A stretch of DNA of 60,488 bases from Nemertoderma westbladi (taxonomy: Eukaryota; Animalia; Xenacoelomorpha), in the NCBI GenBank assembly GCA_032718475.1, contig JAUCBJ010006657.1, positions 1 through 60,488 on the forward strand, read 5' to 3'. Positions 18,281 to 52,970 of this stretch are shown here, one piece after another. Numbering within the stretch: the first letter of the stretch is position 1; every line of letters begins with the position of its first letter. The position numbers were made by a program, and so were the translations under genes. The notes under the pieces are model-generated. The model made no database searches and was not told the origin of the DNA. It saw nothing but the letters and a program-made list of their open reading frames with translations.

Positions 18281-20044
18281 CATACTGACCAGCTGACATA
18301 GGAAAGGAACCCAACCCTATACAAGACAACTTTACCCAGTTTCTGAGTTTATAGGCCTAGCCTACCTTTTTATAGGATATAAATTATTTTTGTCTTTTTT
18401 GGTACCGTACCGTGCCGATAATTATTTTAGGTAAATTATTGTGTTTTTGTGTTTTTGTTTGGTACCGGTAATTTTGTGTTTTTTGGGTAATTCGTAGGAC
18501 CGATCAGCCGATCTTAACTGAACTCTATCTATCCAGCTACAGAGCCATTTTATGATCGCGTGGGATGATATCTGATATCGGAGCGGATACCGTATTCTAT
18601 TTCTGTATTTATGATCAACAATCAATGACAGACAGCTGCCACATGGCTGCTGAGTAGAGGAGCGGCCTTCATCATTCATCTACTGATCGATATTGGAGGA
18701 TATGGCCCGCCCCCTGCTGCCTTGCCTCACCTCAAGCTGTCAAGTGTCAAGCGAAGAAGCAACCAACACAAAGGAATTACATAATAATGTAAACAGCGGT
18801 ACCGGTACCGGTAAGTGCTGAAGTGAGATGTTAAAAAATCTATAGTACAATAGTAGGCACTATACAGCCATTCCATCCACTCATTTTACAATGATATAAG
18901 AATAATATTTATTAGTTGTCCTTCCTAATTGGAAGCCCAGGAATGTCGCCACTAGACCATGCGGGGGCGGGCGGCTGCTTGAAAATAACAACTACCGGTA
19001 GTTGAGGTAAATTGCGGTTAGTTGCGGTTTTTAGTAGGACCGTTATTTTTTGGGGGGTTCCGGACCGGTAGGTAATAATTCAAATTCGTAAATTTGCAAT
19101 ATTTTGGGGTAAACAAAATTTCTAAAACAGGCTCAAAGGCAAGTATTTCTGTATTTTGGGGTAATTCAGTAATTGTAAACTATTTTGGGGTGATTTCAGA
19201 TTTTATACTATGTTGAGGTAATTCGTAGGACCGTCTAATTTATTATTAAACTATCAGAAGTATTTTATTTTCTGAATTTAAACGAAACTCTAACTTATTG
19301 TATTTGTTATATGCGATATTGTTGGAAAACATCAATCCAAAAAACGTCGTATTGCAGTATTTGTAAGCCTATCGTATTTCAGTATGTAAGGTTTTATTTT
19401 TTAAGATTTATTACATGTATTACGTTTTCTGAGCCGGGGGGGGGGGGGGGGGGGGGGGGTGGGGGGGAGGGGGACTGGATGCAAAACCCGCCTTGGCGAA
19501 TTAATATTCCGCCTCAATGTTAAATTCTCAATTTAGAGAAAGGAGCAGGTTACAGTGGCACGTTATTTTAACCAAAACAATAAACTAAACACAAGTTACA
19601 GTTTAATTTTTGAGAGTTATCACCTATTATTTGCGTCGAATTTCCCCTGGAAAGGGATTAATTTTTATTGAGTCCAGTTCCCCCCCCCCCCCCCCCCCCC
19701 CCTCGCCCCCTATCTGCGTTTTCTAGGGTCGTTCGAAATACCGGTACCCTAATATCGACTAATATGGGGCACTAGTGTCAAAAACTGAAATAGGGGACCC
19801 TCCTAATCTGCTAACTGATGAAACCACCTATGCTAATCCTGAAATTTAGCAGGTGATAACAATATTCCTAACTCTCGTTTATTGTTTTGGTTCCTTTCAA
19901 CTCGCCTCTGTAACCTGATCCTTTACTAACCGGGCACTAGTGACTTCAGTTTAGGTGATTTCAGGATTAGCAGGTTAGGAGGGTCCCCTATTTGACACAA
20001 GTGCCTAATATGGACTAATAATATAGGCCTACAGTTTTATACAC

Positions 20045-20330: not shown

Positions 20331-21593
20331 AATTTTCGCATATTGCTACGGAAACTAGCTACAATTATTTTCGTATAATTTTAAATAAATGTTCTATAAA
20401 TGTTGTATAATACCATTTTTACCGATAATTAAACTATTTTTTAGATATTGCTTTGATACGGGATTCTAGAAAATATGTTATAGTTTATTAATACAATTTA
20501 ATGTATTATTATCCTATGGTATAGAAAATATACCGATCTTGCTACGGTTTCTTTCACATGTAGCTAATTCTCAAATCGTATCTCAGAGAAACTGCAATAT
20601 ATCCCCGTTAAGAAAAACTACCATCTCAATAAGATTGACAGAGTGGCACTTTAAATAATTCTACACGAGTATTCGTGAGAAATATAACTCTTATTAGAAA
20701 CCGCCATCACCAAAAGCCATGCTAGCATCATTAAATTAGATAGAAACAGCATGAAAAATAAAGATATCTTTTCGTTGTTTACCATCTAATTAATTTTATT
20801 AAATTTTAGTGTAGTAAAATTCAAGGAAATGCATTTAAATGCTATGTAAGGTGGGATTAAAAATCACTAGGAAAAATTGAATCTGCGTGTTATATTAGCC
20901 TGACAACAAATTGGGAGATAGTTTTTATTTCAGACATTTCACTCCCTAGCAGCAGACTGGAGAACTGAGACTGTTCGTCATCCTCAACAAAGACACTGCC
21001 TATTATGGTGTAGTACATCTCTTCCAAGTATCAGCAAAAAACATAAACAACGAAAATGGTTTTCACTTTCATTGGGAATTGCAAATTGGTCAGAGTCCTC
21101 CCCAAACACGCAGTCTATGGTGTAGCAAACCTCTCGCAAGTATCAACTTAAAAGCATTATTAATAAAGAAATGGGAGAAGGTTGTCACTTTCAGACATAG
21201 TGAAATCGTATCCTGGTTAAAACGTACCCGAACAAAAACATATCCGAATGCGAATATACTGGGTACGTTTTAACAATGATGCATTGGGTACGTTTTAGTA
21301 GTACAAAAATAAATAGTAAAAATAAACTAACCTGCGCTATTAACTCGTTTGTTGTTTTGGTTAGATTAATTCGTTACTGTATCCTGCTCGTTTCCTTTTA
21401 AATCTCCGATACTAATGATATTGATTGGTTGTATGAAGTTTTGTTAGGATGACTATAATGTATTGTGGTTCAAGTTAAAACGTATTCAAAATATGGTTAC
21501 GATATTGATCGGGTACATTTTAACCGAGGTAAGTTTTGACCTGTAACCCTTAGAACAGACTGTGTCTTCTTTTACATATACGAATATCAAAAT

Positions 21594-21800
21594 ATGCATA
21601 ATATAATGCATAATGCATAATATAATGCATAATATAATGCATAATATAATGCATAATGCATAATATAATGCATAATGCATAATATAATGCATAATATAAT
21701 GCATAATATAATGCATAATATAATGCATAATGCATAATATAATGCATAATATAATGCATAATATAATGCATAATGCATATAATATAATGCATAATGCAAA
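21594..21800. repeat. Simple satellite (ATAATGC / ATAATATAATGC)n
   Basis: Directly visible tandem 7/12-bp units; source of the spurious YALY/CIIL ORFs. Confidence 0.95.
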
Positions 21801-22094
21801 TATCACTCAAGCAAATGCATAAAACTTGCCTCTAGTTCGCAATGGTTTACGTGCTCATGATGAGAGCTTTCAATCGGTGTATAATTGGCTCCGATTGAGG
21901 CTCGTGTGTCGAAACGTAGAGCTTGGAAGGACTTACTTCCTCACTCACTCACATACAGACAAATACATATTTGTATATAATTATATATTCGATAATTTCT
22001 AGTTTAGTTGTATCAGTGCATGGCTGTAATTTAATAAAACGTTTTTTTTTTAATTTTTTTTTAGATTCCCAACCAAATGTGAAAACCTAAAGCA

Positions 22095-25000
22095 ATGTCT
22101 GATCAATTTATTGACATCTCCAGTGGCCATAATGATCTTGACATGCCAGTACAGCTTCCATATAAATGTTCTTTGTGTAGTAAAGCATTTTCATCTCTTC
22201 GTGGACTTAGTCTTCACAAACGCCGTTCGATGAAGTGTGCTACACTGTCTAATCAGACCCTGATGTCTAATCAATCTGGAGAAGCAGCTGATAGTATTGA
22301 TGAGAGACCTCTCTCTCTTAATTGTTATGTGTGTAATGCTGTATTTACCAGTGTCCGTGGACTTAATGTTCACCATCAGAGATCTGACATATGTGCAAAG
22401 GCTCAGTATAACCTGACAAAGATTAAAAAGCGGACATATTCCGAATTTAAACAGAAAGAGCAAGCAGTGGACACAGAGGCTGGGAGTAGAAAACGAACAT
22501 GTCCTCAATTTCGACTGGTTGAACAGTCTAAAGATACAGCAGCTAGACGGGAGAAACGTGTCTCATCTCCAGTTCGACTGATTGAACAGTCTAAAAATAC
22601 AGCAGCTAGACGGGAGAAACGTGTCTCATCTCCAGTTCGACTGATTGAACAGTCTAAAAATACAGCAGCTAGACGGGAGAAACGTGTCTCATCTCCAGTT
22701 CGACTGATTGAACAGTCTAAAAATACAGCAGCTAGACGGGAGAAACGTGTCTCATCTCCAGTTCGACTGATTGAACAGTCTAAAGATACAGCAGCTAGAC
22801 GGGAGAAACGTGTCTCATCTCAAGTTCGACTGATTGAACAGTCTAAAGATACAGCAGCTAGACGGGAGAAACGTGTCTCATCTCAAGTTCGACTGGTTGA
22901 ACAGTCTAAAGATACAGCAGCTAGACGGGAGAAACGTGTCTCATCTCAAGTTCGACTGGTTGAACAGTCTAAAGATACAGCAGCTAGACAGGAAAAACGT
23001 CACACATCTGAAGTTCGGCTGGTGGAACAGTCAAAAAATACTGCTTATAGACGAGAGAGACGGACCCTTTCAGTAAGACAGGATACATCCTCTGTTAATG
23101 AGCAGAACACAAATATACCACAGAGTTTCACATCTGCTGAAGAACCAGAACAAAGCTGTAGTTCTCAGGACAATGTACCTCATCAAAGGAGTAGAAGTCG
23201 CAAAAAGCCACCTGTTAAAATTCCTGTGTCTAGTTCTGATAGAGTTAAGTATTCTTCCAGGTGTGAGCTATACAAAGAACTTGAAAATGAAGTCAAGTTC
23301 TTGAAGAATACTCTCCATAATTGGGGAGTTCCAAAGTGCCACAAGGATATTGATAATGTTTTAAGTGGGATTGATTCTAAAAATGATGAAGAAGCAACTA
23401 TTTTTAAAACTGTTGTTTATCCTCCAATTAAGAAAGCATCTGAGAGAATGCAACTACCACTATGGTCCTGGGATCAAAGAGAACGTAAACATACCCAATA
23501 TTTGATTGAAACTGAACAGCTAGATGTTCAAAAAATGCGTCAACAGGATACTGAGTATGTAACGCAGGTTATGGATGATTGTGTCTTCAAATATTCATCA
23601 GGTTGGCAGCTGAAACAATGTTCTATGTGCCATGAAGTTACCATACGATTGGGGGTAGAGTTATTGAGTGGTGACTGCCTAAAATGTAAATTGGCTTCGG
23701 CGAGACGATCAAAAGCTGCTTCAAAGACATCACGCCAGGATGTTGCCCTTCAAGTAACATTATCTCCTAACGAGTTCAATAAAAGTATAGGAAAATTGCC
23801 TAAGTGTACAGCCTCAGAAAGATGTATGATTGCTAAGCAGCAAGCTTTCACAAGTGTGAAGTTTGATTTTATACGACGTCATCGTTTTGCATGCCACAGC
23901 ATTGTTGTAAGCCACAACTTGAAACAGACCATAGAAAATATGATACCACATACTGAATATGCTGATCATGTTGTTGTTGTAGCTAAAGATGTTAGTGGTG
24001 AACACATTCGCCGGATGAAAGTACGAAGTGATGTTGTTCGAATGTGGGCGCAACATCTACTAAGTAACAGATCTAGTTATAGGAAGATTATAAGCAATGA
24101 TAAGTTACTTGACAGTTTGCAAAGTGGAATTTACAACAGCCATTGTGAAAGACCATTGGGTATTGATCAGTTAACATGTGAGTCGGAGATCATCAATGAT
24201 GTACAGCACGATATGTATGCCCAGTCTGATAGTGCAGCACACCAAATGTTCCGAGTTGGCGATAACCTGAATGGTTACATTCAAACTGGCATTAGAGAAG
24301 CAGTACAAAAGCAGCTACGTGGTACTCGACATGATATAGAAATATCTGGGATGTGGAATGAAAAGGTGTCTTCTCATAACTGGAAACTACAAGAACAATT
24401 TCCAGATCTTCATGCTGACGGTCAGAAATCAATCACTGATATTCTGTTCTATGAAGATGACGATGGAAATACTCGACGCACTCATTTGGATATTCTTAAA
24501 CGAGCTCTTAGTCACCAGTTAAAGTATGCTGTTGAACAACCTGATGGATCCCATCGATGGCCATATGCAGAAGATGATGTTTATTCTTTTGTTGTATATG
24601 ATCAGTTACATCTTGTGTCTGCTTTTGATGGTATACGATTCTACCTACATAATGAAGGTGAGATAGATAATTTGAGCACAGATGAACTCCTCAAGGCGTT
24701 TAAGAATGGGCATCCTGAAACAGTTGCTCCTCTTTTAATAGCCCATTTACGAAGATACCCTCATTCAACAGAGAGGTGGAAACAGATAAGGTATGAATTG
24801 AATTCCTTGTGTATGTCAGCTGGATTTCCGAATCTATTTATCACATTCAATAATAACCTGAGAACTGATTATGGAGTGCGGCGAATTGTATATCTATCAG
24901 AATATGGCATTAACAAAATGTTTAATCCCACTTGGTTTGTAAAGAGAGACACTTGGAACAAACTATTAGATAAACATGCAGCTTTAGTTGAGCAATACCT

Positions 25001-28000
25001 ATATTTTAAGGTTGAGTTGATGTCAAGGACTTTCTTTCAGAAAGTATTAGGAGTTGATATTTCTACAGGATGGTACTGGGGTAGATCTGAATGGGGTCCA
25101 TCACGAGCTGTGCAGCACTGGCATTTCTTGGTGCGTATTGCCCAGGTACTTGAGCCAATATTGTTGGCTCACCTGGTCCACAGAGCTCGCTGTATAAAAG
25201 AGTACTGGTCTGCTGGAAAGATGGTAGAGAACTATAGGGATGAGGCTATTAGAATTCTGCGTGTCGGCCAGCTTGCTGAAACATACCTGAGAAATTTGTT
25301 TGATAGCTTAATTACAACAGACTTCATTGATACTTCTGGGAACCCAGTTAATTTGGACGAGCTACTGCGCAATCATAATCTACTTCCTGAGGAACAACAG
25401 TACAGCCCTGAGCATCATCCACTGATGCGTGATCCTGTGAATCAACCAGACCTTTGTGAACCGAAATGGTTTGATCAAGCAGTTCAGGCTGCTCTCGCTC
25501 AAGTTCACAAGTGCATTCCTGAGAATTGTGGTGGGAATCCCCAGGGAATTGGCTGTCGTCATGGTGGGATAAAGCCTCTCAGAGATTCAACTAAAGTAGG
25601 TTTCACAAAGTCCTCATCTACCATGGACTACACAGAGTGTCGGGTGCTTACAAAACGGAGCCACAAGTCATTCACTCGTCTAAATAATATAAATCCAATC
25701 TTACAGCGGTATTGGCGTGCCAACACAGATACAACTGTAATTTGTTGTGCTTTTACAGTCATCAGATATGCAGTCAAATATGCTGCGAAGTCAACATCTA
25801 GATTGTCTTGTATTGACGAGGTTGTGAGTAAATTAATGGAGCTTACAGAGAGCCAACCAGATGTGTCAATTCACAGCATTGTTCGTCGGTTGGCTATAGC
25901 ACATGCTTTCAATCCTGTTGATATGAGTAGACGGCAGCTACTTTTTCATGCTCTCCAGTTGCCTGATGTTATCAAATGCATGCCACGCATAATTTCATTG
26001 AAGTGCAGCCAAAGTGCTCCTATTCTTGCTAATGTTTCAAGAGTTTCAACTGATTCTAGCATGTTACATGTTGAGGAATGCATAGATGATATTGATAATG
26101 ATACTGATGATTTTAGTGACAACAGTGATGTGGAAGATGATAGGTTACCATCACAGACCAATGTATGTGAGAGAAGAGAGAATGTTGAAGCCAATGAAGA
26201 CATTTATAATGTTAAGAGTTTATTTATAGTTCCACCAAAATCAGCATTAAATTCTTACATTCAACGAAACAATTACTCAAATTGGCCAACTGAAAAAGTT
26301 GGTTGCATCGAAAATATTAGTTACTTTGATTATTTGTTATCGGTAAATCTTGTGTATAGAAAGGCACAACTGGAGTATATTCATCAGTCAGTCTCTCATA
26401 GATATCCACGAGTGCCTCATATTGTTCCTCAAATGGTAACTGATAGACCAGAATCTATTGTATTAGATCAAGGCACAACTTGGGGTAACCTACATCGAGA
26501 AACAAGGCAAGCTCTACAGAATCTGCGCATGGAATGCTTATCATTCATTCCATTTACATCCACTGAATTATTTATTAGTAAGGATCTTGCAGAATCCATT
26601 AAATGTGGTGAAAGTGATGTAATATGTGCCTATAAACAATTTCAAGACATATGGGTTAATAATTTGAAAGAGAGAAGTCTTCCAACCATAAATCGTATAG
26701 CAATTATCAATAATCAGTTACAACCATACAATGATCCTTGTTTTAGATTCAGGATCTTCCAGAACACATATAAATCTGAAATTGATCACAATAGACATAT
26801 CTTGTCAATTCGATCAGAATTTAATTGTGTACCCTTGGATATTGATCATAGTAGTCAAATGGACTCTGCTTCAGACAGTTTATTCGACCCAACTCTTGTT
26901 GATTTGGATGTAGAGAAAGTTTCTATTAATTTACTTCTTGCTGATGAGATTAATGTTGAGTGTTTCATTCAACCAGATCGATTATTGTCATCTTTTGTTG
27001 AGGAGACAGACAACAAATGTATTGAGTCTGTTGTATATATTAACGTTAAAGAAGCAACCTATGATTTCATGCTTAAACGTTGGAAACTCTTACGGTTATC
27101 ATCAAAGACGTTTAAGGGTGGTCCTAAGAAACCCAGGTCTGATTTGAAACAGTTAAATACACAACAACAACTTGCAGTAGACATGATGACCTTGAATACA
27201 GTAAATGGCAAACCATCAGTTAAAACATTACTACTTACTGGATTGCCAGGATCTGGTAAATCGGAGGTAATTAAACAGATACATTACCATCTTGGTGTGG
27301 AAAAGGTTTTACTTCTTGGTACCAGTGGTGTTGCTGCTGCAAATTTAAACTGTGCAACATTTGAGGGTTTTTTTGGTATTTATCAAAATAAAACTCAGTG
27401 GGACCACCATAAATTGTCAGATCGACAAACGCTGATTAAAGAACTCATTGGTGGTGTTGAAGGGGTGATTCTTGATGAAATATCAATGGCTGGTGCCAAT
27501 ACGTTGGCTCTTCTAGACTCTTCATTACGTCATGCGACTGGAAATGAACAGCTATTTGGCAGTAGAAAAGTCATGCTTGTTGGTGATTTTGCACAATTGC
27601 CGCCAGTACATTCTAAGCCTATTTGGGATAGACCAACAAACTTAGCTTCAGACAGGCCAACAAATCATCATATTCAAACATCCAGAGCAGTGGCCCAGAT
27701 TGGTTTTCAGATTTATCGAAACAATTTTCGAAAGAATGTAATTTGCCTTGATAAAGTCTACCGATACGACGATGAATTGAGTACAATTATTAACAACATT
27801 CGTAATGGTACACAAACTGAAAGAGATTACGATGAGTTGTTTAAGTCCATGAATAAACTTGGCATGGTTCCCAACCGGGCTACTCTTGGTGAGAAAGTCA
27901 TAAGCTTAATGTATGATAACCATCCACGAATGTTAAGAAATGCCATTGAATGCATGGATGAAGTATCAGAGCTAAACATTGATATATATTTATCAATTGC

Positions 28001-30278
28001 CAAATATAATTGCGACAATTCAAACTTCAGTAAATTGGGTCCGAATGAATTCAATACCATGTTAGAACATGTTATCCCTTTATATATTGGCATGGAAATA
28101 ATGTTTGTTGATAATATCAGTGTGCAGAAACGTGTGGTTAATGGAGGTCGCGGTATTGTCAAACAAGTGGTATATAATGAAGATGATCTAGAGTTTTTGT
28201 TAGGTCGGAAAGAACACCCACAACCCAACCATATTGTAGTTGATGTGTATGACCTCGATACAGACAGTGAACCATTACCTGAATTTCCAGACAACCCCAC
28301 ATGGGTTAGAATATTCCCCATAAGATCATATTTAAAACAGGCACGAAAACGTCATCATAAGTTTGCTGAAAATGTAGCACGTTTTAACCTTCCTGTTGTC
28401 CCAGTTCATGCAATAACTGTGCATAAATCTCAGAGTAATCAATATCCAGGCTCTCCAGTATATATTAATGTAAAAGCGGATGAGATTGCTCAAGGAAATT
28501 TGGCCTTGGCAAACCAATTATTAACAACAGCCGCATCTCGAGCAGATAGTTGCAAGAACCTTTTTGTGGAGCCTTTTTCACTGGAGACGTTTTTGAAGCT
28601 TGGTACTTCAAAAATGGATGTTAAGAGGCGAACTGAGGAAAATGAGCTTCTTACAAACTCAAAATCATTTTTACATAAATATGTCAGTAACATATCAAAA
28701 AAAGCAGTATCTGTGTCAACAACCGTTCATTCAAATGTTGTGGGGGGTGTGGGCCTGCCAGAACCAAGACATCAACCCAATCAAGTGATAACACGATCAG
28801 TTGGCATTGACCCGGGAACAGAAAACATGGGCATTGCTATTTGGCACAAAGAACCCCGATCAGCACCACTCTTGATATTTTGTGCAAAGGTGACACTTTG
28901 TAGTGCTGTAGACCGATCAACCAACAGTTCAAAGCTAATTGATATTATACTGAAGTCTGAACCAAGATTATTGCCATTTCTAACAACCAGAAATCCACAT
29001 GATAGCCCATATATTCCATCTTGTTCCATCTTAGCTGTAGTAGTGGAACAATTTCCATCTTATGCATCACTACGTTGGATGACAAAGAGTATCGTCGATG
29101 GTCTTCGTATCTTTGTTAATAACTGCTCACCATTTCGTCTCGAAAATAACACTCTAAAGGTGCATCATAATTCTGGGTTTTTGCTACATGCATCGCGGGG
29201 ACCTCTAGCTTATTTACCGAAGCTAGTGAAGGGTCTTCATATTACGCTTTATTTAAGAAGACCAACTTATGCTGATCAATTCAGTGATATACAACAACAG
29301 GAAAGAGCTAGAACTGCAGATAGAATTAACAGAAAACAACAATCAGCAAAATTAGCCAGATCAGTTCTTTCTGGAGAGTCAATGAAATTTTCAAATGAAT
29401 TGCAAGTTTCAGAAAGTGTAATAGACGAATTTAAAGATCTGGTTTTATCGAAGGCAGATGATTTTGGTGATGCTATGTTACATGGATTGTATGAACTGTT
29501 GATTCTTCGAATTGAATCCATGCATGCATCCCACTTTGTAGAGATGCATAGACAACAAACGTTGTTTCAAATTGGCAGTATTCGTTTGGTTGTCATTTCA
29601 CCAGGTCCAAAGTGGACTTTGTTAACCATCATGAGATGGAATGCCGTAAATTCCACAGTTATAGAAAGACTTATTCTTAAACGAACTCCTTATGATAAAT
29701 TTAAAGTTCCACTTGAGAATGCCAAGTTGTTTAGTGACAATGTAACTGTAGATGAACGAGTTATCGCTTGGCAGAACGAATTATCAGAACAGCTGTTAAC
29801 TAGTATTCGGTCACTAACTAACTCTGAAAGGTTTGGTTTTACAGCAACCAAGTTCGTTTTGATTCTAATGCGAAATTTACATCCTCGCGCACCAATGCAA
29901 CGATTTCTAACCAAGGATATGAAGACTCTATTCTCGCCAGCTAGAAACATCGAGGATGTTTTCTTCAAGACATTCAACGGTGTGCCCAACATCTGGCACA
30001 TGATTGGATCTGGAGAATCACGTTTCCTTCATGAAGCATGGGAAATTGTTCCAGAATTAATTACCAGAGTACAAGGTTACATCACTATCCGAGAGAAAGT
30101 CGAGGCATGTTTAGAGCTCATCACAGATGACACAACTTTCAGTAACCTCGAATTCACTCAACAATCTAAAACTGATATCGACCAGTTTCGTGAATGGGCT
30201 ATCCAAAAACGTATGATGGAAACCATTATACTTGGGCTTCATGCGTTGAAGAAACAAAAACATTTGAAGCTCCGATAA
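22095..30278 (+). CDS. Helitron-like (Helitron2/Helentron-type) Rep-helicase transposase with C-terminal RuvC/A22-like resolvase
   Basis: Uninterrupted 2727 aa. Two N-terminal C2H2-like fingers; DUF6570-like segment (LPKCTASERCMIA…VRSDVVRMWAQHLLSNRSSY). Rep motifs PNLFITF, EWGPSRAVQHWHFL (HUH) and YAVKY. Pif1 motifs GLPGSGKS, LDEISM, GDFAQLPPV, AITVHKSQ and AASR. C-terminal GIDPG…VVEQ…RKQQS…KADDFGDA. Confidence 0.9.
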   Translation: MSDQFIDISSGHNDLDMPVQLPYKCSLCSKAFSSLRGLSLHKRRSMKCATLSNQTLMSNQSGEAADSIDERPLSLNCYVCNAVFTSVRGLNVHHQRSDICAKAQYNLTKIKKRTYSEFKQKEQAVDTEAGSRKRTCPQFRLVEQSKDTAARREKRVSSPVRLIEQSKNTAARREKRVSSPVRLIEQSKNTAARREKRVSSPVRLIEQSKNTAARREKRVSSPVRLIEQSKDTAARREKRVSSQVRLIEQSKDTAARREKRVSSQVRLVEQSKDTAARREKRVSSQVRLVEQSKDTAARQEKRHTSEVRLVEQSKNTAYRRERRTLSVRQDTSSVNEQNTNIPQSFTSAEEPEQSCSSQDNVPHQRSRSRKKPPVKIPVSSSDRVKYSSRCELYKELENEVKFLKNTLHNWGVPKCHKDIDNVLSGIDSKNDEEATIFKTVVYPPIKKASERMQLPLWSWDQRERKHTQYLIETEQLDVQKMRQQDTEYVTQVMDDCVFKYSSGWQLKQCSMCHEVTIRLGVELLSGDCLKCKLASARRSKAASKTSRQDVALQVTLSPNEFNKSIGKLPKCTASERCMIAKQQAFTSVKFDFIRRHRFACHSIVVSHNLKQTIENMIPHTEYADHVVVVAKDVSGEHIRRMKVRSDVVRMWAQHLLSNRSSYRKIISNDKLLDSLQSGIYNSHCERPLGIDQLTCESEIINDVQHDMYAQSDSAAHQMFRVGDNLNGYIQTGIREAVQKQLRGTRHDIEISGMWNEKVSSHNWKLQEQFPDLHADGQKSITDILFYEDDDGNTRRTHLDILKRALSHQLKYAVEQPDGSHRWPYAEDDVYSFVVYDQLHLVSAFDGIRFYLHNEGEIDNLSTDELLKAFKNGHPETVAPLLIAHLRRYPHSTERWKQIRYELNSLCMSAGFPNLFITFNNNLRTDYGVRRIVYLSEYGINKMFNPTWFVKRDTWNKLLDKHAALVEQYLYFKVELMSRTFFQKVLGVDISTGWYWGRSEWGPSRAVQHWHFLVRIAQVLEPILLAHLVHRARCIKEYWSAGKMVENYRDEAIRILRVGQLAETYLRNLFDSLITTDFIDTSGNPVNLDELLRNHNLLPEEQQYSPEHHPLMRDPVNQPDLCEPKWFDQAVQAALAQVHKCIPENCGGNPQGIGCRHGGIKPLRDSTKVGFTKSSSTMDYTECRVLTKRSHKSFTRLNNINPILQRYWRANTDTTVICCAFTVIRYAVKYAAKSTSRLSCIDEVVSKLMELTESQPDVSIHSIVRRLAIAHAFNPVDMSRRQLLFHALQLPDVIKCMPRIISLKCSQSAPILANVSRVSTDSSMLHVEECIDDIDNDTDDFSDNSDVEDDRLPSQTNVCERRENVEANEDIYNVKSLFIVPPKSALNSYIQRNNYSNWPTEKVGCIENISYFDYLLSVNLVYRKAQLEYIHQSVSHRYPRVPHIVPQMVTDRPESIVLDQGTTWGNLHRETRQALQNLRMECLSFIPFTSTELFISKDLAESIKCGESDVICAYKQFQDIWVNNLKERSLPTINRIAIINNQLQPYNDPCFRFRIFQNTYKSEIDHNRHILSIRSEFNCVPLDIDHSSQMDSASDSLFDPTLVDLDVEKVSINLLLADEINVECFIQPDRLLSSFVEETDNKCIESVVYINVKEATYDFMLKRWKLLRLSSKTFKGGPKKPRSDLKQLNTQQQLAVDMMTLNTVNGKPSVKTLLLTGLPGSGKSEVIKQIHYHLGVEKVLLLGTSGVAAANLNCATFEGFFGIYQNKTQWDHHKLSDRQTLIKELIGGVEGVILDEISMAGANTLALLDSSLRHATGNEQLFGSRKVMLVGDFAQLPPVHSKPIWDRPTNLASDRPTNHHIQTSRAVAQIGFQIYRNNFRKNVICLDKVYRYDDELSTIINNIRNGTQTERDYDELFKSMNKLGMVPNRATLGEKVISLMYDNHPRMLRNAIECMDEVSELNIDIYLSIAKYNCDNSNFSKLGPNEFNTMLEHVIPLYIGMEIMFVDNISVQKRVVNGGRGIVKQVVYNEDDLEFLLGRKEHPQPNHIVVDVYDLDTDSEPLPEFPDNPTWVRIFPIRSYLKQARKRHHKFAENVARFNLPVVPVHAITVHKSQSNQYPGSPVYINVKADEIAQGNLALANQLLTTAASRADSCKNLFVEPFSLETFLKLGTSKMDVKRRTEENELLTNSKSFLHKYVSNISKKAVSVSTTVHSNVVGGVGLPEPRHQPNQVITRSVGIDPGTENMGIAIWHKEPRSAPLLIFCAKVTLCSAVDRSTNSSKLIDIILKSEPRLLPFLTTRNPHDSPYIPSCSILAVVVEQFPSYASLRWMTKSIVDGLRIFVNNCSPFRLENNTLKVHHNSGFLLHASRGPLAYLPKLVKGLHITLYLRRPTYADQFSDIQQQERARTADRINRKQQSAKLARSVLSGESMKFSNELQVSESVIDEFKDLVLSKADDFGDAMLHGLYELLILRIESMHASHFVEMHRQQTLFQIGSIRLVVISPGPKWTLLTIMRWNAVNSTVIERLILKRTPYDKFKVPLENAKLFSDNVTVDERVIAWQNELSEQLLTSIRSLTNSERFGFTATKFVLILMRNLHPRAPMQRFLTKDMKTLFSPARNIEDVFFKTFNGVPNIWHMIGSGESRFLHEAWEIVPELITRVQGYITIREKVEACLELITDDTTFSNLEFTQQSKTDIDQFREWAIQKRMMETIILGLHALKKQKHLKLR
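22512..23062 (+). repeat. 63-bp coding minisatellite, ~9 copies (RLIEQSKDTAARREKRVSSPV)
   Basis: Near-identical in-frame 63-bp units in the RepHel N-terminus. Confidence 0.95.
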
Positions 30279-33267
30279 TATACACTTTTATACGTTCTAC
30301 GTCGCCCTTAATTGGTACCGAGTTTAGCTTTATACATGAGAAAACTGATGGGATAGTCCTTCTAGAACGCATTATTCCTCTTGCGCGTTGTCATGGTGAC
30401 GACTACTTAATATTAGAAACTTAAAGTATTTTATCAATTCCGTATGTGTACTATTAATATCTCTTGGATGGATAAATAAAGACATTATTATTATATCTAT
30501 TTTTGCTTTATGTTTATTGTTATTTATATTCTAATTTATAAACTAATTTAGTTTTGGAACTTGTCATCAGTTTTTAAGCGTATTGGATCCTTTTTTTGTC
30601 CTTTTTTTCCATTGTTTTTTCTTTTCTTTTTTCGGAAAATTCACTCTGCTGTTACATGTTGTAGCAGGTGTCAATTCACTACAACAACTGTTGTCAACAA
30701 ATTAATGCAAATCTAATAATTGGTCATTGTTAATTTGTATTGTTCTGGGGTAATATCAACTCTTCTTATATTTTCAGTGTTTATATGGGACTAACAAAAC
30801 TGCAGTAGTAATTACATTGTTGTACTTTTAAATGTTCATAATTTTCTATTGTTCTATAGCTACCATTTATCAATTTAAATTAATTACACTTTATTTGAAC
30901 CAACTACAGCATCTATAATTGGCGTTGGGTTCATTCATTCACAATTTTAGCATTCCCGTTGATATCAAGTTTCCTTTCCCTCTTTCCGCATTTCCCTATT
31001 TTAATTAATTTACTTATGATCTCTTGCTGGTAATTTAAAACAGTGCTCTTCTTAAAGGGGATTCTATTCAACAACGCTAAAACACCTACACAACTTATTT
31101 AAATATTTCAAAGCACATTTCCTAGCTCTTTTTTTTTTTTGGAAATATCAATTCCTTTTAATACTTCTTTTGAACCTTGTTTTATCCTTATTTTCTTGCC
31201 TTGGAGTGCGTCTTATCCTTTTTTTACTTATTTTAAAATATCCATTCCTTTTTTTTCTCAATTTTTTTTGGCTGGGAGGGCTGCAACATAGTCACGGAGT
31301 GTTGTAGGCCGTCAATATAGACCTGTCTACAGAATCTCATTGTCTAAGAGGCGGTTCGTTATTATTATTTCTAAATTTTGTAAAGGGCTGGGAGAAGGCG
31401 TTCTAGAATGCTTTGGAAATTTAATATAGGAAACCACTGAAAATCGGAATGCATTCTAGAAGCTTTGAAGGGAACCACACATATAGGGAACAGTAGCCTA
31501 TAGAACTTGTATCTATGGTACACTCTCATTTGTGCAATCGTTTCATCTGCGTTAATTATATTATGTTTTGATTTTAAATCAACATTTAATACAATGATTA
31601 ATTCGATGATTATAATATACAATACATATCTATTTACATGCATTTACATTCATGTAATTAAATTAAAATGTCAATGGAAAATGCCATATAAAGTAAGTTG
31701 CTATTAAAAATGCATTTCTATCGGCAGATCTCTTCAGATTCGATGTTTAGCTATTGACGTTGTTTTTGTTTAAATAACTTTTTGATATGTTGATATTTCG
31801 TATATACTGTAACCTGCTCCTTTCCCTTAATTAATAATTAATATTGCTAATTTATCAGAGACAAGATATTAATTCGCCGAGATGGGCTTAAGAATACAAT
31901 TAAGTATTACGTTGTTAACTCCGTATAACATTTAATTCCATTACTGCTACTGGTCATAAAATATAATTTGCGTGTGGCCTTCCAGAAGCTAAGATAAAAG
32001 CAGTTAATTAAGCTTTAATTAAGTTATACGGTAAAAAAATATCATATTTCTGCCTGCCCTGTAATGGTAATTAATTATTTTATAGTATAATATATAAATA
32101 ATTATACAGCTGTAATCCCCATACGCCATTCCATTATAGTTTTTAATTAGTTCAAGTGATTTGCTTTAAGAAATGTGTTTTTAATTTAATAAACGTAGCA
32201 TAATCCATCATTCCATGGCGTGCTTGCTCTTGCCGGTGGTGCTGAGAATCAGTCCAACCAGTTCCACTTCACCACTACTCCAGGAAAGTGTAATTGCATC
32301 TATAGGACATGCAATAGTGTTAGGCGTTTAGGCCCCATACTAATAAGACAGCTTGCTTATTGTTTATCTCGCAAAATGATTGGCTGATTATTTAGAATAA
32401 CGATACGACTTGAATATATTATTTAAAAAAAAACAATTTTCTGTTAATACCTGCATGTCATCAACCGCATCTGTGTGCCTTTGGGTTGGGATGGTGCAGA
32501 TTAAAAGGGGGTTGAAAGCGATCAACTTTCCCCTCGCCCTCGATGATTTATTTGCGGTTTGGTTAATTTCTTAAAAAAATATATAGATTTTGTGATACAA
32601 TTGCTCAACTTTAATATAATCTCATAACTGAGCCTCGTGCTGCGCGAAGGCCCCACGAACGTGTCCTAAGGACGTATATATACGTCCTGGTGTTTATTGC
32701 TGCCAATGGGGATGATTCAAGTTTAGGTTATTCTAGCAGTGTTTATCCATTGCTTAGGACAGTATACTACCCGTTTTAGTTAAAAAAGTGATCGGAGTTT
32801 GAGTTAGAGGTTGGAATTCAACCAATCAGTGATGAGCTCCTTTTCAGAGACAGCAGGCTGCTTATTGAAAGCAGATTGATTGTACCTTGTACTGTACAGT
32901 AGGATATGGCAGAGGTTTGAATGAGTAGCCCTTGAGAATTCCAACCAATCAGAGTTTATTTCCCTGTCAAGCTTGACACTGTAATAATCTACTTTGTAAA
33001 TAAATAAATACATGACTGAAAAGTGAAAAGTGAAATCATGGTATTCTTCATATTGGTGAATTACGTAATTGTATTTCGTAAATAAAATAATGGGAATGAT
33101 GATTGTTCCTGTACTAGCATCCTGGTGGATTATTGTGGTAATTCTGCAATAATGAAGCTATATTGCATTTTAGTATTACAATAATTATTCATTTATATTT
33201 ATCATTCATTTATAGTTTATATCCAGGGCTCTGCCTTGATAAATGCTTTGCAGATTATCATTGCCAA

Positions 33268-34978: not shown

Positions 34979-37077
34979 TTACTGATTCTCCACGCTGTGC
35001 TGGTTGCGTTTATGGGTCGATAGATTCGATGTTTGGGAGAACGCTTTACCACAAGTATCACAGATGTAGGGTTTATCTCCTGTGTGGATACGTTGGTGGG
35101 TTTTTAGATCGGAACTCCTGGTGAATGATTTACTACAGACGTTACAACTGTAGGGTTTATCTCCTGTGTGGATACGTTGGTGGGTTGTTAGATAGGAACT
35201 TGTGGTGAATGATTTACTACAAACGTTACAAATGTAGGGTTTATCTCCAGTGTGGATACGTTGGTGGGTTGTAAGATGGGAACTGTTGGCGAATGATTTA
35301 CTACAGACGTTACAACTGTAGGGTTTATCTCCTGTGTGGATGCGTTGGTGGGTTGTAAGATGGGAACTGTTGGTGAATGATTTACTGCAGACGTTACAAC
35401 TGTAGGGTTTATCTCCTGTGTGAGTACGATTGTGTTGTATTAGAGAGCCGTTCTCTGAGAAAGCTTTGTTGCACATAATACATTGGAACGGTTTCTCACC
35501 AGAGTGAGTGCGTTGGTGGCGTGTTAGATGGGACTGTGTGCTGAAACCTTTACTACATGTAGAGCAGCTGAACGGTTTCTCCCCGGAATGAGTGCGTCGG
35601 TGGGTTGTTAGACTGGACTGTCGGCTGAAAGCTTTACTACATGTAGAGCAGCTGAACGGTTTCTCGCCTGAGTGAACCCGTTCGTGCTCCATTAGTTGGG
35701 ATTTATATCCAAACACTTTCCCACAAGAACTACATCCCAAACAATCAACAGGTTTATCTAAACTGGAACGTTCCTTAGGACCAGTAGGAACGTTGGAACC
35801 CGAACCTGTTGGAGTAGAACCGGGTTCCTTGTGTTTCCGTTTTAAATGGGAAACGAGAAAAGATTCCACGGTGTAGACGATGTCGCAATGTTCGCAAGGG
35901 AATTTATGTAAACTCTTATCGTGAACTAAATCTAATCTCTTCCGCTCAGCACATCCACCTCGACTACTTTGGTGTCTAAGAATTGCCTCCTGATTATCGG
36001 ACCGGTAACTTCCACACCCGGTACACAGAATCATCCCGTCTTCCATAACTTTCATCCCCAATATCTTATTCTTTGGTTGTTTGGTAATTAATCCCAATTC
36101 CTCCGCGTATTCCGTTCCGTACCAAACAAGGAGTTCCGTACCGGCTGCAACTGGTTTACAGACCCGATAATACATATCCTCTCTGAACTGGAAAGCACTA
36201 ACTGTTTGTTCCTCCTCCCATTTGGCGCAGTTTACGAAGCGCATCCAATTAGACTTGTACTCCCATCTCCCGCTGACAGTAAAGAATTTACCCACATCGT
36301 CCAACATCAACCAGCTGTAACCGTCAGACTTGCCGGGTTTAGGTTTACCAGGTTTCCTCTCTCCGCCATAAGGGCCAAATAATGTTCCCGGATTCAAGTC
36401 GACCTTGGTAAACACTCCTTTATTATGAATCTGAGATTTCTTTATCTCCAAACACGAGGGAATTGTTCTGCTGCCCCGGTTCCTTCCTCCACGAGTGGTT
36501 TCGGTATTCGGTACGAAGTTAAACTCCCCGTGTACCGGACACTGTAAGTCACTATATTCCTCGCTGCAATGGTCGCAGAATATAAAGTTATTGAATGATT
36601 TTATTGGACAGTTGCGGTTGGCGTAATCGACTTCCTTTCTGGGTCGTAAACCACATCGGGGTTCGAAAGGAGCCGTCGATTTAGGAGAGACGATGACATT
36701 TAAATCCGACTCAACTGTAGAAGAACCCGAAATCTCTTCAACTATTTCTTCTCCCTCGGCTACTGAGGCCGGACTTCCCCCACTAGAAGTCCTTCCCGCT
36801 CCCGAACCAACGCGTCCCAAACTGTTAGCGAGTTTATCGTTAACCGATTCCTCGGCACTCGGTACACATGGACCAACAGTATCCGAGTGTCTACCGGAAC
36901 TGACGTCATCCAACAGATCGATCGCTGTATCAGATCGATCCACATCGGGAATACATTCCAGCTGTCCTTTTATTTCCTCGATGGAATCAGTTGTAACGAT
37001 AAACGATGACGAATTAAAACCTCCTGTTTCCCTGATAATATCGGTCGGAGATAAAGTCACTGAGTTCCCTTCTGCGG
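34979..37077 (-). CDS. PRDM9: PRDM9-like histone methyltransferase, coding exon 2 (SSXRD, Zn knuckle, PR/SET, C2H2 array)
   Basis: SSXRD-like GLRPRKEVDY; knuckle FCDHC…CPVHG; SET with FGPYGG, SNWMRFVNCA, MYYR and ELLVWYGTEY; one post-SET finger plus 9 tandem C2H2 fingers with TGDKP/SGEKP linkers. Predicted acceptor TTTCAG at 37078. Confidence 0.88.
34995..35735 (-). repeat. 84-bp zinc-finger minisatellite
   Basis: Four nearly identical CNVCSKSFxxSSxLxTHQRIH units and two CSTCSKxFSxQSxLTxHxRTH units; variation is concentrated in the recognition helix. Confidence 0.9.
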
Positions 37078-42517: not shown

Positions 42518-43430
42518 TGATAGAGGCTACGGTTGGTGTTAGCTTATTCAATCCCGCTAACACCCCATAAAGTTATAAGCCGATAAGCAATATTGGGAGC
42601 CACGAGATTGGGCAATTAACCAACTCGTGCCATCCCAATAAGAATGGGAAGGAGAAGCACACAATGAGGGTCAGGGGCCAAACCCCTAACCCAGAGAGAA
42701 TAGGTGGAGTGAACGGGAACACTCCAAAGGGCGCCAACAAGGGTATCAACCAATCAGAGGGGGGAAAGGCATCGATTAGGTAGAGTAACAAGGCCAACCG
42801 TGCAATATAGCCACTTGGCAGTAATCATACCAATTTCAGTTATCTCAGTGCAATACCGGTGCTAGATTAAGTTACATAGTTTAGCTAGGGAAGGACCGGG
42901 ACTTTAGTTACCGTATCCCGCCTTCCGTATACGACAATATTATCTCATATCTATATCTATATCTATATCTGCATATCATATTATATACGACAAACAGCAC
43001 AAACTCATTCAGTCCTTATACACGGCGGGGACGCGTGAACTAACAACGGATAAACCGGGATCCCTCTTGGATCCCGTCACAGTAACTAAACCAGCTGCCG
43101 CCCTAGATAAACTCAGTAACCACCAGCCACCAAATCTGCAGAAGAAAGATGAGTCAGTCGGGTGAGATATCACCGACGCGGACCCCGGACGAAGAGCTAA
43201 CGATCCGCGAGGCCGCAACCAGGTGATACAGGCCCACAACGCCGGACCCATCGGTAACGGGTCATCCGGCAGTTCAGGACGAGGGGGGCCTGGAACCCGA
43301 GGTCGAGCCGAGAGGAAGAGAGAGCAAGACGGAGGGAGACGGAGACGAGTCGACACAAGGCGGGGGTCGACGCACCGGTGTCGCCGGCCAGCCTCAGGCC
43401 GAGGGCGACGAACGGGCCACCGAAACGGCG

Positions 43431-46108
43431 ATGGTGGGGCCGACGGTGCGGCCCCGGACGCAGAGAGACGAAGGAGATATCGGTACCGATGTCGCCGGCC
43501 AGCCACAGGCCGAGGGCGACGGACGGCCCGCCGGAACGGCGACGGTGGGGCCGCCAGTACGACGTCGGACCCGGAGAGACGGAAGAGAGATCGGCGACGA
43601 GGACGTCGGGGTTTCTGATCGACTTCGACGGGCCTACAACACGACCCAGAGACTACTAAAGGACGCTAAGAAGGAAGGGGCGAAGATAGACGAGGTGAGA
43701 CTGAGGAAACGACTAGGTGAGTCGGATAGACACTTTAATTACCTAATGCGTTTTGGGCAGAGAGAACTAGCCGAGGAGAGAGCGAAAGGGATTGCCAGTG
43801 ACTATGGGAATGTGGGAGTATGGAACCTAGCGTAGCGTCAGTGTACATAGGGCCATACTTGGTCGATGCCCGGGGAGTAAAATTAGTGGGTTGGAGGGGA
43901 CCAGAAGGAGGCGAATCCGAGGTTAACCCCGAGGATTCGGCCTCATCGGTCGGAGGAAGTTCCGGGAAGCGGGGGAAAGTTAGTAGATCGGGAAGGCGGA
44001 GGGAGTCCGTCGTAACCGATAAGTCTGCTACATCCTCCGCGAAAGAAAGACTGGTGAGAGAGGCAGGTGCCGCGTACCGTCTCGAGCTGATAGAGCAAGG
44101 TCAGAGGGAAATGGATAAACGGCTAGAGGAGGGGAGAATGCGGCTAGAGAGGGAAGCGGCATTGATTAGAGAAACCGGAGAGAAGGCCGAAAGGGCTTTG
44201 AGAAGCCTTAGGGAGTATGATGAAATAGAGTTGAAGGAACAAGAGGAGCGTGTGGCGAGAGAGAAAAGTGAACGCGAGAAACATGAGGTGAGAGAGAAAA
44301 GTGAACGCAAGGAGCGTGAGGCGAAGTGGGAAAGTGAACGAAAGGAACGTGAGGCGGAACGCGAGAAACGTGAGGCGAGGGAGGAAAGTGAACGCAGAGA
44401 GCGTGAAGCGAGACGAAGGGAGAGTGCTAGGAGAGTAGCAGAGTTGGCTGGCCAGGACGCGCGGGAGTGTGAGAGGAGAATGGCAGAAGCTGAGCGAGAG
44501 CAAAAGGAATTAGAGAGACGCCAAAGTGAGCTTTCGGGACACAGGATTAGACGCGCGCATGAGTTGCAAATGGTGCGGGCGGGGGCGTCTGAGAGCGAGA
44601 CTGGCTCGAGTATTTTAGAGGAGCCAGGGGCCGTGGATACATTTATTAATACCCCACTTACAGGGACCGCACGACAGACCCAAAACTGGTGTGACCGTAC
44701 GGGCGGGGGGGGGGGGGTAATAATGATAATGGTACAGTAGACGTGGTTAATATTAATAGTACCGTATGGGATAATTCTAATCAAACCTTTATTGCAGGAA
44801 ATACTTTACCTAGTGGTAGTAATTTAAATTTAAATCAGAACAATCCTAATGTTAATGTAGAAAATAATTCTAATAATGTGGTTATACAAAGTAATCCAAA
44901 TAATTTAAATAATGATCCAAGCCCGAATTTACAAAATAATTCAGATAGTGTAGTCGCGCAAGATAATTCAAATGATTTTATTTCGAACGAACAAATTAAT
45001 TCCGTTTCCAATACGGGTGCTATTAATGTAAACACGTCGGGCGTGTATGGCCAGACAGATGGGGCCCTGGTAGGCCACGTAGTTAGTAGGCCGGAAGTAG
45101 CTGGGTTAGGTAGACCCGGTGAGGGCCTGGTAGGCCACGTAGTTGGTAGGCAGGAAGTGGCTGGGTTAGGTAAACCCGGCGAGGGCCTGGTAGGCCACGT
45201 AGTTGGTAGGCAGGGAGTGGCTGGGTTGGGTAGACCCGGCGAGGGCCTGGTAGGCCACGTAGTTGGTAGGCAGGGAGTGGCTGGGTTGGATGGACCCAGC
45301 GAGGGCCTGGTAGGCCACATAGACGGTAGGCAGGGAGCAGAGGGCCTGGTAGGCCACGCAATAGCAGAGAGAGAGGCGGGGGTGAATAGACCCGACCGCG
45401 GTAGGGTTGATGTGTCGACTAGAGAGGGATATAGTAGCGGGATGAGAGATAGCGAAGTTAGATGTGGCGAGTGGTGGGGGGGGGGGGGGGCTACGAGAGC
45501 CCCACAACAGCGAGTTAGCGGCGAAAGGGGGGGGGGGGCAGAGAGTGTCCCACAGCCGTCAGCGGATAATGCGAGGGCCGAAATAGGTAAACGCAACAAC
45601 CGGCGACGGAAAGTAATAGGGGGATTGCGAGTATCCCCAGCGGCGTGCGACCGAGCAGAGAGAGACAGGTTGACGTCGTGAGAGGGCGGACGAAGCGTCG
45701 AGCCCGATCAGAAGAGGGAAGGAGAACAGGGGTTTAACCGGGAGGTCGACGAGAGATCTCACGAGCGGGAATACTACACTGAAAGGAGAAGAAGAGAAGA
45801 CAGTAGTAGAGGTATCGCCGCGAACGATAGAAGAACGAGGACGGATAGCGAGCTGTCGGTAGTTGAGATGAGGACGGAGAGTCAGTGGGGTCGGACTCCG
45901 GGAGATTGCCGTCGCCCCGGAGAGATGCGACCCGGCGAGGCGCACTACGCGCCGATGGAGGGGTACGCGATGTACCGGTACGAAGACGAGAACATTAGAG
46001 GGGGGGGGTCGAAGAGAAACTTTCCGACGGAATACACCTATCGATCGAGAATACGGTAGCCGCGGGGAGGACTATTCGAGAAGAATAAACTTCGATCCCG
46101 AACAACAC
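43431..46108 (+). pseudogene. N-terminal gag region (coiled coil, Asn-rich and Gly-rich repeats), frameshifted
   Basis: Consecutive ORFs 43431-43835, 43820-44740, 44743-45681 and 45868-46059; several breaks lie near poly-G runs. Confidence 0.6.
45058..45360 (+). repeat. 60-bp coding tandem repeat, ~5 copies (EGLVGHVVGRQGVAGLGRPG)
   Basis: Repeated GGGCCTGGTAGGCCACGTAGTT units at 60-bp period. Confidence 0.92.
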
Positions 46109-51723: not shown

Positions 51724-51871
51724 TAGAGTTAGAGAAATGTTTAGTCGTCCAAGTTTTGGACTGAGGGGGTGGGATTGAGGGCGAGACGCCCTTCCCACAC
51801 AAAAAAATAAAATAAATAAAAAAAAAATAATAGTACATGGTAGGTACGCAGTTAGTAGGCAGAAGTTAGTT

Positions 51872-52480
51872 AAGAGGTACGTAGTACCTAGTTAGTTAGT
51901 TAGTTAGAGGGTACGTAGTACCGCTAGTTAGTTAGAGAGTTAGAGGGTACGTAGTACCGCTAGTTAGTTAGAGAGTTAGAGGGTACGTAGTACCGCTAGT
52001 TAGTTAGAGAGTTAGAGGGTACGTAGTACCGCTAGTTAGTTAGAGAGTTAGAGGGTACGTAGTACCGCTAGTTAGTTAGAGAGTTAGAGGGTACGTAGTA
52101 CCGCTAGTTAGTTAGAGAGTTAGAGGGTACGTAGTACCGCTAGTTAGTTAGAGAGTTAGAGGGTACGTAAGTACCGATAGTTAGTTAGAGAGTTAGAGGG
52201 TACGTAGTACCGATAGTTAGTTAGAGAGTTAGAGAGTACGTAAGTACCGCTAGTTAGTTAGAGAGTTAGAGGGTAAGTAGTACCGATAGTTAGTTAGAGA
52301 GTTAGAGGGTACGTAAGTACCGTTAGTTAGTTAGAGAGTTAGAGGGTACGTAGTACCGCTAGTTAGTTAGAGAGTTAGAGGGTACGTAAGTACCGTTAGT
52401 TAGTTAGAGAGTTAGAGGGTACGTAAGTGCCGTTAGTTAGTTAGAATTAGAGTTAGAGGGTACGTAGTACCGTTAGTTAG
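51872..52480 (+). repeat. ~36-bp tandem repeat (~16 copies) between pol and the extra ORF
   Basis: Unit GAGGGTACGTAGTACCGCTAGTTAGTTAGAGAGTTA. Confidence 0.95.
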
Positions 52481-52970
52481 AAGAGAGAGAGTAAGAGGTA
52501 AAAGGGGATATAGATATAGATATTAGTTAGCAGTTAGTAGAGAGAGGGGGGCATATGAGTGCAGCTGGGTAAATCGTGTGGCCACACGACGCATACTGCT
52601 GTACTGCATAGGCCCACAGAGTAGGCCAGAATGTGGATTAGAGAATAGAATAATCCATAGGCAATAGTAAGTAGTAGGACAATAGAATCAAAGTTAAAAT
52701 AGATAAATAAATAGAATAAGGGCTGAAAGTTACAAAATAATGGCAACACTAGGAAAGTTATTCTAGAACATAACAAAAGTAACGGACAGAAATTGTAAAT
52801 TACGCTCATTTACTAGCTTCAAAATTAATTAGTAATAATTTAGGTTAAAAGGCGCAGTTAAGTAGGAAATAGGTCATTATCGAACCGTACAGAACATCCT
52901 AGATACATCACTCATCTGTATTGCGCCTTGGTAAGGCACCACCTTGCAGGTGAGCGAGTGAACGTTCGGA

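Follow-up and report, generated by a model that had tools for sequence, protein, structure and literature searches.

Among described transposons, the Helentrons come closest to the element reported here, which lies in a 60,488-nucleotide (nt) stretch of Nemertoderma westbladi DNA (assembly GCA_032718475.1, contig JAUCBJ010006657.1, positions 1 to 60,488; hereafter the window) and probably, judging from its domains, belongs to the HLE2 group of Helitron-like elements. Both have a transposase of the zinc finger-Rep-PIF1 type with an additional C-terminal nuclease, and a DUF6570-like stretch, scoring below the family cut-off, parallels the DUF6570 of Helentrons. In Helentrons this nuclease is an apurinic/apyrimidinic (AP) endonuclease (Exo_endo_phos), whereas the transposase analysed here ends in a tandem pair of domains with a predicted RuvC/Ydc2 fold, which we call D1 and D2. 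Indeed, no Exo_endo_phos match was found by Pfam at E <= 1 and the C-terminus is RNase H-like, so that in the strict sense the element is not a Helentron. The Helentron endonuclease has been hypothesised to nick DNA (PMC4067079).

The A22-type (fowlpox), Ydc2/Cce1 and RuvC resolvases have the fold in common with the tandem (D1 at Z 11.1 to the fowlpox structure 6p7a, D2 at about Z 10.5 to Ydc2), and their D..E..DxxD pattern is found in D1. As free-standing proteins, they form homodimers with a pair of active sites. In contrast, the transposase carries two copies in one chain, of which one lacks three of the four acids, and both copies are larger (~235-245 aa) and fused to the transposase. TEFM and Mrs1 are precedents for a resolvase fold that is kept for binding, but they are separate mitochondrial proteins that act as dimers in which every subunit is dead, and neither joins a dead domain to a live one. 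The logic proposed below, an asymmetric pair that makes one cut in branched DNA, is that of Mus81-Eme1 and XPF-ERCC1, in which an active and an inactive subunit are two polypeptides of the ERCC4/PD-(D/E)XK fold, unrelated to RNase H. Mus81-Eme1 prefers nicked junctions (PMC2670506). A further RuvC nuclease, the TnpB-like Fanzor, is carried by some Helitrons (PMC13565253). Fanzor is RNA-guided and has a split RuvC with a zinc finger near RuvC-II, whereas D1 and D2 are contiguous RuvC folds in frame with the RepHel transposase. Identity with Fanzor/TnpB was rejected, since aa 2230-2727 hold no CxxC, no TnpB-family Pfam match was obtained and the folds are contiguous in the model.

A Helitron transposase with a live and a dead resolvase-fold domain in tandem is apparently undescribed so far. 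The HELIANO survey counts 20 captured domains in Helitrons; in the available portions of this source, the main text does not mention RuvC, and the supplement mentions none of RuvC, Ydc2, Pox_A22 and resolvase (PMC11417382). RuvC is likewise unmentioned in the accessible part of a paper on Paramecium Helitrons (PMC13085455). In its accessible part, a survey of the RNase H-like superfamily gives, among multi-copy proteins, RNase H plus integrase and no tandem resolvases (PMC3985635). Judged from titles and the openings of abstracts, neither a Helitron-fused resolvase nor a live/dead resolvase tandem was found in the accessible full-text literature, a body that excludes Repbase, subscription journals and bioRxiv supplements. 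Pfam does not detect the module, and surveys of Helitron domains may have missed it for this reason.

The tandem occupies the C-terminal end of one open reading frame (ORF), as follows.

22095..30278, + strand: Helitron-like (probably HLE2-type) RepHel transposase ORF, 2727 aa, in an uninterrupted frame.
28791..29504, + strand: D1, RuvC/Ydc2/A22-fold nuclease domain, aa 2233-2470, assigned from a PHROG match, a structure match and conserved acids.
29493..29582, + strand: linker between D1 and D2, 29-30 aa, of low model confidence and of the same length in the window protein and in the five homologues that span it.
29574..30260, + strand: D2, second RuvC/Ydc2-fold domain, aa 2494-2722, a predicted pseudo-nuclease, assigned from the structure model, the TEFM match, the profile-alignment register and conservation.

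D1 has the four acids of the RuvC/A22/Ydc2 resolvases and, in the model, their fold. A search of PHROGs gave a weak RuvC-like match (E 0.003) over its first 35 residues, and Pfam and PDB-sequence searches returned nothing significant for either domain. The structure was predicted with AlphaFold (AF2) from an alignment of seven sequences, with model residue 1 at aa 2230; a single-sequence model, with a predicted local distance difference test score (pLDDT) of 32, was discarded. Compared by VIA-align, whose typical best background lies at Z 7-8, the D1 model matched TEFM (5ol8) at Z 12.0 (root-mean-square deviation, rmsd, 3.5; 182 aligned) and the fowlpox resolvase 6p7a at Z 11.1 (rmsd 3.1; 143 aligned), followed by herpesvirus and phage terminase nucleases at Z 9-10.2. 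The acidic tetrad consists of D2239, E2318 and two acids of a K-x-D2455-D2456-x-x-D2459 motif (catalytic set D2239/E2318/D2456/D2459). These acids are invariant among the homologues that cover them (D2239 and E2318 in 4/4; D2455, D2456 and D2459 in 5/5). The fowlpox enzyme is a homodimer formed via helix B, with D7, E60, D132 and D135 as catalytic residues (PMC6962361); the D1 pattern parallels these four, an equivalence drawn from motif position and not from residue superposition. Helix B of D1 is conserved, L2326, V2334, G2336 and L2337 being invariant. On the strength of these residues, D1 is very probably catalytically active.

D2 is predicted to have the resolvase fold and lacks the full set of four acids. 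The tandem model has a mean pLDDT of 70, with D2 as its better half (mostly 80-90). D2 is built of three antiparallel strands, helices, strand 4, helix B, strand 5, helices and a long terminal helix, and the order in D1 is identical. D2 alone (model residues 257-495) matched TEFM (9mna_A) at Z 10.3 (rmsd 4.3; 174 aligned), so that TEFM is the top structural match of both domains, and over a range mostly in D2 the model matched Ydc2 at Z 10.4-10.7 (rmsd 4.6-5.1). The next matches of D2 (NTPDase, terminases, Spt6 and Cas12, at Z 7-8.6) are at the background level of the tool. The top PDB match of the model in Foldseek was Ydc2, the yeast mitochondrial resolvase (E 8e-4). The ten BFVD matches at E <= 1e-3 comprised five named resolvases or proteins of large DNA viruses, three unnamed proteins, one terminase and one uncharacterised protein. 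At the sequence level, D2 gave no match in BLAST, Pfam, PHROG, NCBIfam or PDB-sequence searches and only leads below 0.9 in an Atlas search. According to the model, D2 almost certainly adopts the variant of the RNase H fold that resolvases have; an unrelated fold, which the earlier note on this DNA had named as the outcome that would refute its second RuvC-like domain, was not predicted.

That note had also held that the catalytic acids of the second domain are replaced, which applies to three of the four. The counterparts of the D1 acids are S2502, R/K2593, R2706 and E2709, with K2705 adjoining; two of the losses are charge reversals, and the last acid, E2709, is retained in all five covering sequences. 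S2502 and R/K2593, both conserved in 6/6 sequences, were assigned from the profile-alignment register, and K2705-R2706-x-x-E2709, conserved in 5/5 covering sequences, from motif spacing in the terminal helix. An invariant H2646-E2647-x-W2649 motif and the helix B residues Q2602, F2604 and D2608 are conserved as well. Since the replacing residues are themselves conserved, D2 is a maintained domain and not a decaying copy. A pocket with one serine, two basic residues and one glutamate is unlikely to bind two Mg2+ ions, because basic side chains at these sites are incompatible with the usual two-metal site of RNase H. D2 is therefore in all likelihood catalytically dead, as far as its residues predict. 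It is more likely that its pocket holds on to a phosphate backbone or contains a salt bridge within the domain. The earlier proposal of a second, catalytically dead RuvC-like repeat thus agrees with the model and the residue pattern, which give D2 a RuvC/Ydc2/A22 fold without a canonical two-metal site, fused behind a domain with an intact acidic tetrad.

The relationship between the two domains was further examined with profiles. BLASTP of D1 against D2 detected no similarity (E at least 1.8). Alignment of seven-sequence profiles by hhalign paired 111 columns that span strand 1 to helix B, with a score of 20.9 (P 0.036), and the reverse direction gave 22.96 (P 0.018); in global mode no alignment was obtained. 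The register places RSVGIDPG on RLVVISPG and LAVVVEQF on VLILMRNL. A score of 20.9 was reached by 1/60 column shuffles and 0/60 block shuffles, reversed profiles scored ~15, and none of 18 real windows of the RepHel protein scored above 15.9 against D1 or D2. These controls place the D1-D2 profile signal, weak as it is, above chance. All eight motifs quoted in the earlier note are present in the transposase (SVGIDPG at aa 2235, LAVVVEQ at 2313, RKQQSAKLA at 2413, DDFGDAM at 2455, IRLVVISPG at 2496, FVLILMRN at 2587, IREKVEACLEL at 2665 and RMMETII at 2706). Its pairing of them was recovered by hhalign from strand 1 to helix B; the pairing of RKQQSAKLA with IREKVEACLEL was not, both being helices in the model. 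Its start of the second domain at 29560 is one base out of frame, and D2 spans about 29574-30260. The parallel that it drew between the last ~235 aa and the preceding domain held up in the shared topology of the AF2 model, in the TEFM matches of both and in the hhalign register (P ~0.02-0.04). Tandem duplication would be the simplest origin of the D1-D2 pair.

The tandem is conserved in related proteins. Six relatives were found: P0005 (1783 aa), the single hit among 6345 word-index candidates, and P0006-P0010, the five matches at E <= 1e-3 of an exhaustive search covering 1.84 billion representatives. All six are singletons that come from ENA or Logan contigs. The alignment of P0005 extends over Rep, helicase, D1 and D2 at 37% identity, and P0007 begins in the helicase tail, so that D1 is preceded by the helicase in both homologues with upstream sequence. 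D1 and D2 stand in one chain in all five homologues that span the junction (P0005-P0008 and P0010), separated by a 29-30 aa linker; the sequence of P0009 is limited to D2. Compared with the three long homologues, the window protein is 39-46% identical in D1 and 28-30% identical in D2. Two other word-indexed searches returned 0/7995 and 0/6827 candidates, and both missed proteins that the exhaustive search found, so that absence cannot be argued from their zeros. Searches of PDB sequences with the 502-aa tail and with an alignment gave no matches, nor did NCBIfam for the tail; profile and PDB searches with two earlier alignments mainly reflected the full-length P0005 row and are uninformative on D1 and D2. 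No related loci were present in the metagenome and viral contigs searched, and tblastn against phages gave only matches at E of at least 4, three of five on annotated RuvC genes.

Two contigs from an independent study, both from one sample, span the join of the helicase with D1 and D2: one of run X3 covers 26644-30765 gap-free with five differences, and one of run X2 covers 27612-30758 with one difference; a further run, X1, may be the source of the stretch itself. The join is therefore not an assembly artefact. Taken together, the fold and the residue pattern give good support to the live and dead resolvase-fold tandem at the end of this Helitron transposase as a real, conserved architecture.

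In a diverged contig of run X1, the match is limited to the DNA of the DDFGDAMLHGLY motif (window 29457-29492), the C-terminal motif of D1. A hand-read frame around it resembles the homologues, with ...KA before the motif and CPLVP... after it, which suggests a second, diverged family with a D1 domain in the same organism.

It is plausible that D1 and D2 pair via their B helices, as the subunits of a resolvase do. One chain would then bind branched DNA in the manner of a resolvase dimer and cut one strand, and its single site may trim or nick a fork, flap or D-loop that arises from rolling-circle copying or from strand transfer into the target. A one-sided cut would avoid the double-strand break expected of a two-site resolvase. 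The considerations for such pairing are the constant linkage of D1 and D2, the fixed linker length, the conserved residues on both B helices and the dimeric nature of the family; we hold resolvase-like intramolecular pairing to be about evenly balanced. That D2 replaces the second resolvase subunit, so that a monomeric transposase would cut branched intermediates once, is a possibility that falls a little short of an even chance. Reportedly, the Helitron transposase structure of Kosek 2021 is described as monomeric in its title, which would favour placing the dimer within a single polypeptide. Helraiser, as far as its partly available description goes, moves one strand and needs double-stranded DNA donors and circles, with replication forks proposed at the nick (PMC5876387), which makes forks, flaps and strand-transfer junctions plausible substrates. 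Because the intact HUH Rep already nicks and joins strands in Helitrons, the module can be at most accessory; as an accessory nuclease it would take the place that the AP endonuclease has in Helentrons. The fullest version, in which a Helitron lineage built a single-chain, half-dead resolvase from a tandem-duplicated RuvC/A22 domain whose second copy now has conserved basic residues in place of metal ligands, the whole acting as an intramolecular pseudo-dimer that recognises branched DNA and cuts one strand, is in our view somewhat less likely than not.

Several observations weigh against this proposal. The hhalign probability for D1-D2 is only 1.4%, and one shuffle equalled the score; given this weak sequence signal and the matches of D2 to RNase H-like folds that are not resolvases, the pair may have arisen by independent capture instead of duplication. 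The model has a predicted template modelling score of 0.49, and the linker and D1 model residues 123-166 and 184-204 have pLDDT below 50, so that it fixes no orientation of D1 relative to D2. D1 matches herpesvirus terminase nucleases almost equally well (Z 10.2), and a fold match thus needs no dimer of the resolvase type. Conservation was judged from only seven sequences, several of them close kin (P0005 and P0006 are 69-75% identical). In the available part of its source, Helraiser transposition is described via Rep and helicase with such a domain unmentioned (PMC5876387), and the role of the Helentron endonuclease has been called undetermined (PMC8788227, as partly available). The pseudo-dimer and the single-nick activity are accordingly put forward as hypotheses.

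The same features can be read differently. D1 might be an ordinary homodimeric resolvase that makes paired cuts, for instance in multimeric circles or head-to-tail arrays, with D2 as a dead outer domain for binding or clamping. This would fit the well-conserved helix B of D1 (L2326, V2334, G2336 and L2337) and the literature as far as it is available: TEFM, the top match of both domains, is a pseudonuclease clamp (PMC9950373), the resolvase derivative Mrs1 binds without cutting (PMC2813881), and tandem Helitron arrays and circles do occur (PMC5876387). However, the invariant residues in helix B of D2 (Q2602, F2604 and D2608) and the fixed linker length are as for a defined contact between D1 and D2, the known Helitron transposase structure is reportedly titled monomeric, and we regard this arrangement as rather unlikely. 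Somewhat more doubtful is a monomeric D1, resembling a terminase nuclease or the Helentron AP endonuclease, that nicks or trims target or donor DNA, with D2 packed in a way unlike resolvases to bind or stabilise. The terminase matches (herpesvirus and phage, Z 9-10.2) and the position of the module, where Helentrons have their C-terminal endonuclease, point this way, and single cuts would be predicted without any pseudo-two-fold; the KxDDxxD motif and the highest identity (19-23% among the ten best matches) point instead to the dimeric poxvirus A22-type resolvases.

It is improbable that D2 is alive with a rearranged active centre (E2709 with the invariant H2646/E2647 and D2608), which would place two activities in tandem. 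S2502, K2705, R2706, E2709 and H2646-E2647-x-W2649 are indeed invariant across sequences that are ~29% identical, and rearranged RNase H-like active sites are possible according to the available part of a superfamily survey (PMC3985635); yet the first Asp has become Ser and the strand-4 Glu has become Arg or Lys in 6/6 sequences, and basic residues are unfit for a two-metal site. That D2 represents an unrelated domain or an artefact of the model has a negligible chance and is largely refuted already. Its lack of matches in sequence and profile libraries, the Atlas leads below 0.9 and the seven-sequence alignment behind the model would speak for an artefact, but D2 is the better-predicted half, its TEFM match (Z 10.3) exceeds the background of 7-8, and an independent profile alignment found the same register.

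The D1-D2 module bears on two questions, the completion of Helitron integration and the function of the additional nucleases in HLE2 elements. Relatives with the resolvase fold are specific for branched DNA, so that the substrate preference of the module would identify which intermediate has to be processed. The known resolvases of this family are symmetric homodimers, and a conserved live and dead pair within one chain would offer a natural way to test how two cuts are coordinated. The tandem may also serve as a structure-specific nickase. If the proposed pairing is true, Mus81-Eme1 would have a counterpart with the RNase H fold, and the tandem would be the third independently captured Helitron nuclease, after the AP endonuclease and GIY-YIG, implying a rolling-circle step that needs a second nuclease.

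The remainder of the ORF carries the following features upstream of D1.

22161..22226, + strand: N-terminal C2H2 zinc finger, aa 23-44 (Pfam zf-C2H2_6, E 1e-3, under the family cut-off).
22378..23133, + strand: tandem array of 63-nt (21-aa) units in frame with the transposase (repeat analysis, family D1, a repeat label distinct from domain D1, and translation).
23793..24104, + strand: DUF6570-like region, aa 567-670 (Pfam E 1.8e-4; score of 22.4 bits, cut-off 24.3).
24636..25781, + strand: Rep (HUH) nuclease, with Helitron_like_N at aa 848-1013, HWH at aa 1008-1010 and YxxxY at aa 1225/1229.
27150..28574, + strand: PIF1-family superfamily 1 helicase (Pfam PIF1 aa 1686-1910, E 9e-20; weak UvrD_C_2 match), its C-terminal limit approximate.

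The order zinc finger-Rep-helicase-D1-D2 thus runs through one unbroken ORF. The Helitron_like_N match exceeds the Pfam cut-off, and HWH and YxxxY correspond to the HUH motif and the catalytic tyrosines of HUH endonucleases. These motifs and the Walker A (aa 1716) and Walker B (aa 1792) of the helicase are all intact. A two-tyrosine HUH Rep upstream of a PIF1 helicase in a single ORF is the mark of Helitron-like elements, and the domain content identifies the product as a Helitron RepHel transposase. DUF6570 is reported as an HLE2 marker in the available part of the HELIANO survey (PMC11417382), and the DUF6570-like stretch, of sub-threshold score, lies upstream of Rep, the position expected for HLE2. 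A second, similar C2H2 finger was found at about aa 77-97 (repeat family D3). The 21-aa array near the N-terminus consists of basic units. An antisense ORF at 29690-30001 was taken as a shadow frame.

The ends of the element were not located: no convincing terminal inverted repeats and no empty site were found at the locus, whose flanks are dense in high-copy repeats. A joint of 21365 with 31806 was rejected as an empty site, because two copies of a dispersed repeat account for it. This short, very-high-copy repeat occurs on both sides of the Helitron (19538-19585 on the - strand, 19908-19924, 21347-21394 and 31807-31823), and the copies are possibly ends of non-autonomous elements. The strongest DNA hairpin 3' of the ORF, at 31274-31313 (-8.0 kcal/mol), is a candidate 3' terminal hairpin, so far unconfirmed. 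Units of 12 and 19 nt form an AT-rich tandem array at 21551-21812, ~300 nt 5' of the ORF; as internal repeats are frequent in HLE2-type elements, the array may lie inside the element. Run X5 covers 30114-30499 only, ending ~20 nt past an AATAAA at 30475, from which we draw no conclusion.

In runs X1 and X3, other contigs align to Rep and helicase at short conserved stretches only, in the same order, within 24466-28590, with joints at 24908-25964, 25987-27318, 28010-28406 and 28483-28590; they appear to be further diverged RepHel relatives in the same organism. Elsewhere in the window, a 693-aa PRDM-like ORF (34979-37060, - strand) carries a PR/SET domain and ~10 C2H2 fingers in one frame, as revealed by Pfam, and a 411-aa ORF (5709-6944, - strand) carries a reverse-transcriptase fragment. 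The PRDM-like ORF and the Pao element described next suggest that the host is an animal. A BEL/Pao-type retrotransposon is spread over several ORFs in a GC-richer, strongly skewed block (43000-56000, + strand), with DUF1759, protease, reverse transcriptase and Peptidase_A17 in the ORF at 46109-49708 and an integrase zinc finger in the ORF at 49790-50923.

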